The translations under genes were made by a program, and so were the position numbers. Under the pieces are notes generated by a model. That model was not told the origin of the DNA, searched no databases, and saw nothing but the letters and a program-made list of their open reading frames with translations. This document shows, piece by piece, positions 2,376-10,392 of a DNA stretch of 64,000 bases (position 1 is its first letter; each line of letters starts with the position of its first letter). The DNA is from Trypanosoma brucei (lineage: Eukaryota): assembly GCA_000002445.1 (NCBI GenBank), contig AE017150.2:288001-352000 (forward strand), given 5' to 3'.

Positions 2376-5300
2376 TCCTACATAAGCATGTTATTACGTG
2401 TTTTATGTGCAAAAGCATGTCATTACGTGTTTATGTGCAAAAGCGTGTCATTATGTGTTTTATTTTTTAAAAAGCATGTCATTACGTGTTTATGTGCAAA
2501 AGCGTGTCATTACGTGTTTTATGTACAAAAGCATGCCATTACGTGTTTTATGCGCAAAAGCATGTCATTACGTGTTTCATGTACAAAAGCATGTCATTAC
2601 GTGTTTCATGTACAAAAGCATGTCATTACGTGTTTATGTGCAAAAGCGTGTCATTATGTGTTTTATGTACAAAAGCGTGTCATTACGTGTTTCATGTACA
2701 AAAGCATGTCATTACGTGTTTTATGTACAAAAGCGTGTCATTATGTGTTTATGTACAAAAGCATGTCATTACGTGTTTATGTACAAAAGCGTGTCATTAT
2801 GTGTTTTATGTGCAAAAGCATGTCATTACGTGTTTCATGTACAAAAGCATGTCATTACGTGTTTATGTGCAAAAGCGTGTCATTATGTGTTTTATTTTTT
2901 AAAAAGCATGTCATTACGTGTTTATGTGCAAAAGCGTGTCATTATGTGTTTATGTGCAAAAGCGTGTCATTACGTGTTTTATGTACAAAAGCATGTCATT
3001 ACGTGTTTTATGTGCAAAATCGTGTCATTATGTGTTTTATGTGCAAAAGCATGTCATTACGTGTTTATGTGCAAAAGCGTGTCATTATGTGTTTTATGCG
3101 CAACAGCATGTCATTATGTGTTTTATGTGCAAAAGCGTGTCATTATGTGTTTTATTTTAAAAAATCGTGTCATTACGTGTTTTATGTGCAAAAGCATGTC
3201 ATTACGTGTTTTATGTGCAAAAGCATGTCATTACGTGTTTTATGTGCAACAGCATGTCATTATGTGTTTTATGTGCAAAAGCATGTCATTACGTGTTTCA
3301 TGTACAAAAGCATGTCATTACGTGTTTTATGTACAAAAGCATGTCATTACGTGTTTTATGTGCAAAAGCGTGTCATTACGTGTTTTATGTGCAACAGCAT
3401 GTCATTATGTGTTTTATGTGCAAAAGCGTGTCATTATGTGTTTATGTGCAACAGCATGTCATTATGTGTTTTATGCGCAAAAGCATGTCATTACGTGTTT
3501 TATGTGCAACAGCATGTCATTATGTGTTTTATGTGCAAAAGCGTGTCATTATGTGTTTATGTGCAAAAGCGTGTCATTACGTGTTTTATGTACAAAAGCA
3601 TGTCATTACGTGTTTTATGCGCAAAAGCGTGTCATTATGTGTTTTATGTGCAAAAGCGTGTCATTATGTGTTTTATGTGCAACAGCATGTCATTACGTGT
3701 TTTATGTGCAACAGCATGTCATTATGTGTTTTATGTGCAAAAGCATGTCATTACGTGTTTCATGTACAAAAGCATGTCATTACGTGTTTTATGTACAAAA
3801 GCATGTCATTACGTGTTTTATGTGCAAAATCGTGTCATTATGTGTTTTATGTGCAAAAGCATGTCATTACGTGTTTATGTGCAAAAGCGTGTCATTATGT
3901 GTTTTATGCGCAACAGCATGTCATTATGTGTTTTATGTGCAAAAGCGTGTCATTATGTGTTTTATTTTAAAAAATCGTGTCATTATGTGTTTTATGTACA
4001 AAAGCATGTCATTACGTGTTTTATGTGCAAAAGCATGTCATTACGTGTTTTATGTGCAACAGCATGTCATTATGTGTTTCATGTACAAAAGCATGTCATT
4101 ACGTGTTTATGTACAAAAGCATGTCATTACGTGTTTTATGTGCAAAAGCATGTCATTACGTGTTTTATGTGCAACAGCATGTCATTATGTGTTTTATGTG
4201 CAAAAGCGTGTCATTATGTGTTTATGTACAAAAGCATGTCATTACGTGTTTTATGTACAAAAGCATGTCATTACGTGTTTTATGTGAAACAGCATGTCAT
4301 TATGTGTTTTATGTACAAAAGCATGTCATTACGTGTTTTATGTACAAAAGCATGTCATTACGTGTTTTATGTGCAAAAGCATGTCATTACGTGTTTTATG
4401 TGCAAAATCGTGTCATTATGTGTTTTATGTGCAAAAGCATGTCATTACGTGTTTATGTGCAAAAGCGTGTCATTATGTGTTTTATGCGCAACAGCATGTC
4501 ATTACGTGTTTTATTTTAAAAAATCGTGTCATTATGTGTTTTATGTACAAAAGCATGTCATTACGTGTTTTATGTACAAAAGCATGTCATTACGTGTTTT
4601 ATGTGAAACAGCATGTCATTACGTGTTTTATGTGCAAAAGCATGTCATTACGTGTTTTATGTGCAAAAGCATGTCATTACGTGTTTTATGTGCAAAATCG
4701 TGTCATTATGTGTTTTATGTGCAAAAGCGTGTCATTATGTGTTTTATGTGCAAAAGCGTGTCATTATGTGTTTTATTTTAAAAAATCGTGTCATTATGTG
4801 TTTTATGTACAAAAGCATGTCATTACGTGTTTTATGTGCAAAAGCATGTCATTACGTGTTTTATGTGCAACAGCATGTCATTATGTGTTTTATGTGCAAA
4901 AGCATGTCATTACGTGTTTCATGTACAAAAGCATGTCATTACGTGTTTATGTACAAAAGCATGTCATTACGTGTTTTATGTGCAAAAGCATGTCATTACG
5001 TGTTTATGTACAAAAGCATGTCATTACGTGTTTTATGTACAAAAGCATGTCATTACGTGTTTTATGTGCAAAAGCATGTCATTACGTGTTTTATGTGCAA
5101 CAGCATGTCATTACGTGTTTTATGTGCAACAGCATGTCATTATGTGTTTTATGTGCAAAAGCATGTCATTACGTGTTTTATGTGCAACAGCATGTCATTA
5201 TGTGTTTTATGTACAAAAGCATGTCATTACGTGTTTTATGTGAAACAGCATGTCATTATGTGTTTTATGTACAAAAGCATGTCATTACGTGTTTTATGTA

Positions 5301-8300: not shown

Positions 8301-10392
8301 TATGTACAAAAGCATGTCATTACGTGTTTTATGTACAAAAGCATGTCATTACGTGTTTTATGTGCAAAAGCATGTCATTACGTGTTTTATGTGCAACAGC
8401 ATGTCATTATGTGTTTTATGTGCAAAAGCATGTCATTACGTGTTTATGTGCAAAAGCATGTCATTACGTGTTTTATGTGCAAAAGCATGTCATTACTTGT
8501 TTTATGTGCAACAGCATGTCATTATGTGTTTTATGTGCAAAAGCATGTCATTACGTGTTTATGTACAAAAGCATGTCATTACGTGTTTTATGTGCAAAAG
8601 CATGTCATTACGTGTTTTATGTGCAACAGCATGTCATTATGTGTTTTATGTGCAAAAGCGTGTCATTATGTGTTTTATGTGCAACAGCATGTCATTACGT
8701 GTTTTATGTGCAACAGCATGTCATTATGTGTTTTATGTGCAAAAGCATGTCATTACGTGTTTCATGTACAAAAGCATGTCATTACGTGTTTTATGTACAA
8801 AAGCATGTCATTACGTGTTTTATGTGCAACAGCATGTCATTATGTGTTTTATGTGCAAAAGCGTGTCATTATGTGTTTTATGTGCAACAGCATGTCATTA
8901 CGTGTTTTATGTGCAACAGCATGTCATTATGTGTTTTATGTGCAAAAGCATGTCATTACGTGTTTCATGTACAAAAGCATGTCATTACGTGTTTTATGTA
9001 CAAAAGCATGTCATTACGTGTTTTATGTGCAAAATCGTGTCATTATGTGTTTTATGTGCAAAAGCATGTCATTACGTGTTTATGTGCAAAAGCGTGTCAT
9101 TATGTGTTTTATGCGCAACAGCATGTCATTATGTGTTTTATGTGCAAAAGCGTGTCATTATGTGTTTTATTTTAAAAAATCGTGTCATTATGTGTTTTAT
9201 GTACAAAAGCATGTCATTACGTGTTTTATGTGCAAAAGCATGTCATTACGTGTTTTATGTGCAACAGCATGTCATTATGTGTTTTATGTGCAAAAGCATG
9301 TCATTACGTGTTTCATGTACAAAAGCATGTCATTACGTGTTTTATGTACAAAAGCATGTCATTACGTGTTTTATGTGCAAAATCGTGTCATTATGTGTTT
9401 TATGTGCAAAAGCATGTCATTACGTGTTTTATGTACAAAAGCATGTCATTACGTGTTTTATGTGCAAAAGCATGTCATTACGTGTTTTATGTACAAAAGC
9501 ATGTCATTATGTGTTTTATGTACAAAAGCATGTAATTACGTGTTTTATGTACAAAAGCATGTCATTATGTGTTTTATTTTAAAAAATCGTGTCATTACGT
9601 GTTTTATGTACAAAAGCATGTCATTACGTGTTTTATGTGCAAAATCGTGTCATTACGTGTTTTATGTAAAAAAGCATGTCATTACGTGTTTTATGTACAA
9701 AAGCATGTCATTATGTGTTTTATTTTAAAAAATCGTGTCATTATGTGTTTTATTTTAAAAAATCGTGTCATTACGTGTTTTATGTAAAAAAGCATGTCAT
9801 TACGTGTTTTATGTGCAAAAGCATGTCATTACGTGTTTTATGTACAAAAGCATGTCATTACGTGTTTTATGTGCAAAAGCGTGTCATTATGTGTTTTATG
9901 TACAAAAGCATGTCATTACGTGTTTTATTTTAAAAAAGCATGTCATTACGTGTTTTATGTGCAAAAGCATGTCATTACGTGTTTTATGTACAAAAGCATG
10001 TCATTATGTGTTTTATGTACAAAAGCATGTAATTACGTGTTTTATGTACAAAAGCATGTCATTATGTGTTTTATTTTAAAAAATCGTGTCATTACGTGTT
10101 TTATGTAAAAAAGCGTGTTATTACGTGTTTTATTTTGAAAAAGCGTGTTACTACGTGTTTTATTTTGAAAAAGCGTGTTATTAAGTGTTTTATGTGCAAA
10201 AGCGTGTTATTAAGTGTTTTATGTGCAAAAGCGTGTTATTAAGTGTTTTATTTTGAAAAAGCGTGTTATTAAGTGTTTTATTTTGAAAAAGCGTGTTATT
10301 AAGTGTTTTATGTAAAAAACCGTGTTATTAAGTGTTTTATGTAAAAAAGCATGTCATTACGTGTTTTATGTACAAAAGCATGTCATTATGTG
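2376..10392. repeat. Tandem array of about 275 units of a 29-bp AT-rich satellite, consensus GCATGTCATTACGTGTTTTATGTGCAAAA, with 28-bp and point-variant subtypes
   Basis: Read directly from the sequence: a 29-nt period repeats head to tail for about 8 kb. Variant positions are gcatg/gcgtg, ttacg/ttatg, gtgcaaaag/gtacaaaag/gtgcaacag and gttttatg/gtttatg/gtttcatg. Units diverge at the 3' edge (10100-10345, 'cgtgttattaagtgtttta' type). The + strand has no stop codons, which explains the giant six-frame ORFs. Confidence 0.95.

Follow-up and report, generated by a model that had tools for sequence, protein, structure and literature searches.

A 29-bp satellite array at the regional centromere of Trypanosoma brucei TREU927 chromosome 2: locus identity, unit variants and comparison between strains

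Is a large array of AT-rich 29-bp repeats in the genome of Trypanosoma brucei the DNA on which a kinetochore assembles, and does the sequence of its unit matter for that role? The array lies in a stretch of 64,000 nucleotides (GCA_000002445.1, contig AE017150.2, positions 288,001 to 352,000), hereafter referred to as the window, and is directly followed by a degenerate retroelement. Based on analysis of the repeat and its surroundings and on comparison with published maps and functional data, we conclude with near certainty that the locus is the regional centromere of T. b. brucei TREU927 chromosome 2 (Tb927_02_v4, ~290.4-298.4 kb). This centromere is not new, having been described as early as 2007, so that the present work is a re-identification rather than a discovery; topoisomerase-II (Topo-II) cleavage, chromatin immunoprecipitation sequencing (ChIP-seq) of KKT proteins, R-loop profiling, small-RNA sequencing, restriction mapping and long-read assembly have all previously been applied to it. 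Its remaining value lies in the comparison between strains, i.e. the dominant unit, edge units of a presumably older type and a unit in reverse orientation at the boundary, which is relevant to the question of whether sequence determines centromere identity.

The array and the mapped chromosome 2 locus

Tandem Repeats Finder (TRF), run on the 64-kb window, detects one large array at 2384-10393 with a period of 29 bp and 276.6 copies (92% matches, 1% indels, score 12827). The consensus, AAGCATGTCATTACGTGTTTTATGTGCAA, is a rotation of the unit given in a preliminary description of this DNA, which had counted about 275 head-to-tail units of about 66% AT at 2376-10392; the copy number agrees, the limits fall within 8 bp of those measured, and the AT content of the array amounts to 67.0%, seen as a GC trough of 0.31-0.34 per kb, the gene-bearing part of the window reaching 0.42-0.53. 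With up to three mismatches allowed, the 29-mer occurs 219 times compared to zero in dinucleotide shuffles, all on the + strand and all within 2386-10377, and even at seven mismatches the 64-kb window holds no further copy outside the array. The window thus contains one array site, and tandem arrays have been reported to be limited to a single site per chromosome (Obado 2007, PMC1868937). Four units folded as DNA reach -11.1 kcal/mol, no more stable than shuffles (z = +1.41), and no special hairpin or non-B structure is apparent, leaving a hairpin-based signal unsupported. Searches against Rfam, of the whole window at the gathering threshold and of 1-2500 at E<=1, gave no RNA family; the repeat caused sub-threshold microRNA matches, which were the sole hits.

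The preliminary description had guessed chromosome 2 from a neighbourhood with polymerase delta and ISWI, and this guess proved correct on three counts. First, the open reading frame (ORF) at 18671-19603(-) is identical to Tb927.2.1600, which lies on a contig of 1,193,948 bp, and exact matches to TREU927 chromosome 2 proteins were likewise obtained for the ISWI-like, cyclophilin and EGF-like proteins and for one more conserved protein. Second, Tb927.2.1700, located at Tb927_02_v4 317225..319513 (Echeverry 2012, Additional file 1, PMC3292466), is the 762-aa window ORF 29225..31513, which sets the offset at 288000 and window position 1 at chromosome position 288001. Third, the published BamHI site at 300054 (Echeverry 2012) coincides with GGATCC at window 12053-12058. 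In chromosome 2 v4 coordinates the array therefore spans ~290384-298393, and the published centromeric repeat array of this chromosome spans 290326..298494, 8.2 kb in GeneDB (Echeverry 2012, PMC3292466). Table 1 of Obado 2007 (PMC1868937) lists for chromosome 2 a domain of 8.0 kb with a 29 bp unit and 66% AT, between Tb927.2.1470 and Tb927.2.1560, and it is with this mapped locus that the window array is identical. Compared to the TREU927 chromosome 2 repeat domain described by Obado 2007, Echeverry 2012 and Akiyoshi and Gull 2014, we find the same locus, unit, AT content, length of ~8 kb, degenerate retroelement and genes; the end points are slightly off, by ~60-100 bp, and otherwise nothing of substance differs.

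The surroundings are in agreement with this identity. Obado 2007 defined T. brucei centromeres by a kilobase-scale AT-rich tandem array in a characteristic neighbourhood, and the window holds such an array (period 29, 67% AT) followed by a degenerate ingi/L1Tc-related retroelement (DIRE) at ~10.5-16.2 kb, and then by genes on the minus strand at 16.7-19.6 kb and on the plus strand from 27.7 kb. An ingi-like element directly after the array had been described beforehand and is indeed present: Pfam detects two + strand RVT_1 fragments at 12052-12516 (E 5e-7) and 12520-12921 (E 7e-13), and C2H2 zinc fingers (zf-C2H2) at 14418-14765 (E 7e-10), also on the + strand. The frame is broken by frameshifts and by many stops (117 in one frame), and as these interrupt the reverse transcriptase and zinc-finger fragments, the element is a degenerate non-LTR retroelement. 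The array had further been said to adjoin the end of a leftward polycistronic unit; minus-strand genes do run towards the array, but the unit is only two genes long, begins at the divergent strand-switch region at 19.6-27.4 kb, and owes one of its members to an inverted duplication. T. b. gambiense DAL972 (FN554965.1) has a collinear orthologous locus that shares the array/DIRE junction. The array and its composition, the retroelement, the gene orientation, the identity with the published locus and the synteny with T. b. gambiense are thus all direct observations of this work.

Centromere function and competing readings

Topo-II cleavage, KKT binding, R-loops, the absence of small interfering RNAs (siRNAs) and the true array size were established by others, and the assignment of function rests on this literature. 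Etoposide-induced Topo-II cleavage, published for chromosomes 1-8 (PMC1868937), maps to one site on chromosome 2, at this domain, as detected using probes Tb5 (Tb927.2.1380) and Tb6 (Tb927.2.2090) (PMC1868937). Strong KKT2 and KKT3 ChIP-seq peaks are found at every mapped centromere, and the enrichment matches the AT-rich array on chromosomes 1, 2 and 4-8 (Akiyoshi and Gull 2014, PMC3978658). In Lister 427, a 2026 study finds the divergent repeats of centromeres 1, 2, 3, 6 and 7 occupied by KKT2 (PMC12975129). R-loops are enriched on centromeric repeats, with the chromosome 2 centromere as an example (Briggs et al. 2018), and within the chromosome cores the first replication origins to act are the centromeres (PMC11739655); in Leishmania, too, centromeres coincide with replication origins (PMC11739655). 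The regional centromere proposed in the preliminary description from architecture is accordingly the published chromosome 2 centromere, with its Topo-II cleavage and KKT2/KKT3 ChIP-seq signal.

The 8-kb length does not reflect the chromosome. A SwaI fragment predicted at 102 kb was observed at 130 and 155 kb, which puts the array at 30 kb on one TREU927 homologue and at 55 kb on the other (PMC3292466), and the assembled copy is hence collapsed, as had been suspected from the outset.

According to these published experiments, the locus operates as follows. The 29-bp satellite is the DNA under the kinetoplastid-specific kinetochore, which is founded on KKT2 and KKT3, there being no CENP-A in trypanosomes. 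KKT2 and KKT3 reside on the array all through the cell cycle, with other KKT proteins joining in mitosis, when topoisomerase II decatenates sister chromatids at the array; resolution of sister catenations at this site is also the reason that etoposide cuts the chromosome there. As members of a class, the T. brucei centromeres carry R-loops (RNA-DNA hybrids) and provide the earliest-firing origin of the chromosome core, and the position of the array beside a degenerate ingi-related retroelement at a transcription-unit boundary matches that on other T. brucei chromosomes.

No observation speaks against this assignment, but three caveats apply. ChIP-seq reads on a collapsed repetitive array cannot show which units were bound. 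The KKT peak of chromosome 3 flanks the repeats instead of covering them, so that the satellite is not always the binding site (PMC3978658). Finally, rRNA genes have been reported to adjoin the arrays on chromosomes 1, 2, 3, 6 and 7, as an accessory feature (Obado 2007, PMC1868937), and the window holds no rRNA by Rfam (gathering threshold for the whole window, E<=1 on 1-2500); as the left flank within the window measures 2.4 kb, the reported chromosome 2 rRNA genes must be situated further left, beyond these 2.4 kb.

The chromosome 3 peak also lends itself to the best surviving alternative, namely that the satellite is a bystander and that centromere function resides in the adjacent degenerate retroelement and strand-switch region, both of which are present at the chromosome 2 locus. 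Centromeres of T. cruzi, likewise found at strand-switch or transcription-unit boundaries with degenerate retroelements, differ in having no tandem array (PMC1868937), and the dominant T. brucei unit is not conserved exactly, five of its 29 positions differing between strains. On chromosome 2 itself, however, the KKT signal falls on the array (PMC3978658), KKT2 occupies the divergent repeats of centromere 2 in Lister 427 (PMC12975129), and the R-loop signal is on the repeats as well (Briggs et al. 2018). We therefore consider a bystander role of the satellite very unlikely.

Far less credible still is a multi-copy subtelomeric or dispersed satellite without a role at the centromere. Other short tandem repeats exist in T. 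brucei, and a different 29-bp repeat, derived from the telomere, is found in its subtelomeres. A related class II repeat is moreover present on chromosome 7 (PMC11666725). The array, however, has housekeeping genes on either side and is situated 290 kb inside a 1.19-Mb chromosome core, in a window free of other copies of the 29-mer; its unit has no similarity to TTAGGG, as read from the sequence, and arrays occupy one site per chromosome (PMC1868937). It is the chromosome-internal position, together with the syntenic position in T. b. gambiense and the published single site, that excludes a dispersed or subtelomeric repeat. The weakest proposal, that the array codes for a repetitive protein, was rejected despite + strand ORFs of up to 1762 aa (2388-4781, 4294-9582, 4613-8278 and 7302-9728), as stop trinucleotides are absent from the consensus unit in all + frames and a stop-free unit with a 29-bp period mechanically leaves all three frames open together, and as the resulting ORFs overlap one another in different frames and are all absent from a collection of 15 billion proteins.

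Unit variants within the array and between strains

Parsing by dynamic programming across the array yields 277 units of 49 distinct variants. Units in the centre are the most uniform, with 0.85 edits per unit, rising to ~2-2.4 toward both flanks; the figure of 5.3 edits per unit obtained at the edge is inflated by three out-of-register terminal units in the parse, and the gradient to ~2-2.4 holds. A fixed higher-order period is absent, the best lag of 47 units giving an identity of 0.23 compared to a shuffle maximum of 0.21. Instead, blocks of up to 23 units reappear as exact copies at irregular distances within the array, which may partly reflect the collapsed assembly.

Nearly all units (262 of 277) are of one TREU927 type, GCATGTCATTACG..., which forms the dominant unit. 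Reference units are available from the nanopore-based Lister 427 v12 assembly, in which cen2A measures 14,757 bp and cen2B 8,800 bp, with a period of 29 and in class II together with chromosome 7 (PMC11666725); the consensus units are TGTTTTATGCACAAAAGCGTGTTATTAAG for cen2A/2B and TTATTAAGTGTTTTATTTGAAAAAGCGTG for cen7A/7B (Rabuffo et al. 2024, PMC11666725). Alignment of the window unit gives a score of 55 with the cen2 consensus and 62 with that of cen7, against a shuffle maximum of 25, and with 24/29 identity to each the window unit belongs to class II, that is 29-30 bp units homologous to cen2 and cen7. The period is hence shared and the repeats are homologous, with the units at the right edge of the window array only 1-2 edits away, whereas the dominant TREU927 unit differs from either Lister 427 consensus at 5/29 positions. 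Array size differs too, with 8.8 and 14.8 kb in Lister 427 compared to the 30 and 55 kb mapped in TREU927.

The two ends of the array deviate from its core. Units of the Lister 427/gambiense type remain only at the DIRE-side edge of the TREU927 array, and the DAL972 array edge (segment 19240-20933) is of the GCGTGTTATTA(A/C)G type, as at TREU927 10100-10310. At the opposite end, a single inverted unit at 2352-2375 stands head-to-head with the array: the arms 2352-2375 and 2384-2407 are 24 nt long, 88% complementary and 8 nt apart, and local alignment of 2352-2375 to the reverse-complemented unit gives 24/25 matches and a score of 45, against a shuffle maximum of 31.

These patterns fit a satellite whose core has given way to a new variant in the TREU927 lineage, with older variants kept at the edge. 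Tentatively, and with slightly more doubt than conviction, we propose that the TREU927 cen2 core is strain-specific and recently homogenised, that Lister/gambiense-type units are left in the ~7 units on the DIRE side, and that the inverted unit marks the left boundary. If this were true also in complete, uncollapsed arrays, the satellite would have turned over almost totally within one species with the kinetochore unmoved, which would argue that recruitment of KKT2 and KKT3 is epigenetic or proceeds via a very short shared motif, not via the 29-mer as such. Trypanosome centromeres are of interest because kinetochores form there without CENP-A, which raises the question of how KKT proteins choose their DNA. 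KKT2 and KKT3 presumably recognise the array either by sequence or epigenetically, and the extent to which the dominant unit has diverged between strains argues against strict sequence dependence. We note that the differences between strains and at the array edges are modest leads and not new biology.

The relation to other centromeric repeats delimits the class further. CIR147 of centromeres 4, 5 and 8 likewise forms AT-rich centromeric tandem arrays beside DIREs that are bound by KKT2. Its units, however, are ~147 bp long and >90% identical among chromosomes 4, 5 and 8-11, and the window array, with its period of 29, is not of this type. In addition, CIR147 gives rise to abundant DCL2-dependent siRNAs, unlike the 29-bp chromosome 2 array, for which none were found (Tschudi et al. 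2012, PMC3447711). The 29-mer nevertheless resembles a ~30-bp sub-repeat of the 147-bp cen8 unit, TGTGCAATGCAACATGTAATAACGTGTTTT (score 30, shuffle maximum 20), in agreement with the earlier description of 147-bp units as composed of ~30 and ~48 bp sub-repeats (Obado 2007, PMC1868937); alignment of the 29-mer to the CIR147 consensus of cen4 was not significant. With the alpha-satellite centromeres of animals, the locus shares a homogenised satellite with diverged edges and block duplications, flanking retroelements and a kinetochore on the repeats. It differs from them in a unit far below nucleosome length, in the lack of a fixed higher-order period and in a KKT kinetochore without CENP-A.

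Flanking sequences and the strand-switch region

The features of the locus are collected in Table 1.

Table 1 Features of the chromosome 2 centromere locus, in window coordinates
Feature	Position	Strand	Evidence
Gene-less left flank, A-rich and low-complexity approaching the array	1..2351	.	ORF, Pfam, Rfam and tRNA searches
Single inverted repeat unit, head-to-head with the array; short palindromic left boundary	2352..2375	-	Inverted-repeat search and local alignment
Centromeric satellite of chromosome 2, class II, 29-bp unit GCATGTCATTACGTGTTTTATGTGCAAAA, ~277 units in a single head-to-tail orientation; kinetochore assembly site according to published data	2384..10393	+	TRF, motif counts vs shuffles, unit parse, published locus, KKT2/KKT3 ChIP-seq, R-loops
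Right-edge sub-block, ~7 units of variant GCGTGTTATTAAG...	10100..10310	+	Adjoins DIRE; 1-2 edits from Lister 427 cen7 and cen2 consensus units
Unique array/retroelement junction, 127 bp, conserved in T. b. gambiense DAL972	10394..10520	.	Sequence comparison
DIRE, degenerate ingi/L1Tc-related non-LTR retroelement, 5' end facing the array; approximate boundaries	10521..16200	+	Pfam, stops, gambiense comparison
Cyclophilin-type peptidyl-prolyl isomerase, XP_951503.1; last gene of the short leftward unit, in the left inverted-duplication arm	16670..17494	-	
Tb927.2.1600 (XP_951504.1), ISG65/75-like, transcribed toward the centromere	18671..19603	-	Exact match; PF11727, E 7e-20
Gene-poor divergent strand-switch region between the two-gene leftward unit and the long rightward unit	19604..27403	.	
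Right inverted-duplication arm with second cyclophilin gene (27689-28279); start of the rightward polycistronic unit	27404..28664	+	

Left of the array, the 2.4 kb initially described as gene-less indeed contain no ORF of >=150 aa, Pfam match, rRNA or tRNA; stop-to-stop fragments in 1-2383 are without Pfam match, and ARAGORN finds no tRNA.

On the other side of the array, the 5' end of the retroelement was placed at ~10521 as a candidate position, based on a CCCCGGC...GCCGGC motif that we take to be like the conserved 5' signature of ingi/L1Tc-type elements. The 3' limit was set at ~16154-16219, where the identity between TREU927 and T. b. gambiense leaps from 84-88% to 98.7%. This change is abrupt: in the comparison of window 8715-16154 to the DAL972 segment 13379-20932 the DIRE is 84-88% identical, and the adjoining genes and strand-switch region are 98.7% identical between the two. 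Two explanations offer themselves, a far higher rate of divergence in the pericentromeric DIRE or its conversion by other DIRE copies.

An inverted duplication of 1.27 kb, with arms at 16285-17550 and 27404-28664 that are 99% identical and carry one cyclophilin gene each, corresponds to chromosome 2 v4 304285-305550 and 315404-316664. The arms, situated 6 kb from the array, enclose a 9.85-kb segment comprising Tb927.2.1600 and the strand-switch region. Both copies are also present in T. b. gambiense, and the duplication is not among the seven long inverted-repeat siRNA sources of Tschudi et al. 2012 (PMC3447711). The T. equiperdum contig CZPT02001626.1 starts exactly at the inverted-repeat arm and joins the cyclophilin/DIRE side to the sequence right of the other arm; the apparent rearrangement, at 12859-12869, stems from scaffolding over a run of N and was dismissed as an assembly artefact.

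Within the strand-switch region (19604-27403), no ORF of >=150 aa and only fragments without Pfam match are found. It includes a GC-rich patch at 22000-24000 (GC 0.52-0.53, GC skew -0.23) with low-complexity stop-to-stop fragments only, again without Pfam match, and may represent the start of the rightward transcription unit. From 27689 onward all genes are on the + strand, the rightward unit comprising the cyclophilin, two EGF-like membrane proteins, a PIG-A-like glycosyltransferase, DNA polymerase delta, an ISWI-like ATPase, a kinase and others.

Further along this unit, a microsatellite-laden 3.4-kb stretch (53700-57050) between a protein kinase gene and the next gene is AT-rich (GC 0.30-0.32), includes a change in GC skew at ~56 kb and contains no ORF or RNA family; we rejected it as a special feature, as it looks like ordinary low-complexity untranslated or intergenic sequence. 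The second EGF-like gene (37391-39799), a paralogue of Tb927.2.1700 (29225-31513), is flanked by 300-nt direct repeats at 36785-37084 and 39821-40120 that are 100% identical.

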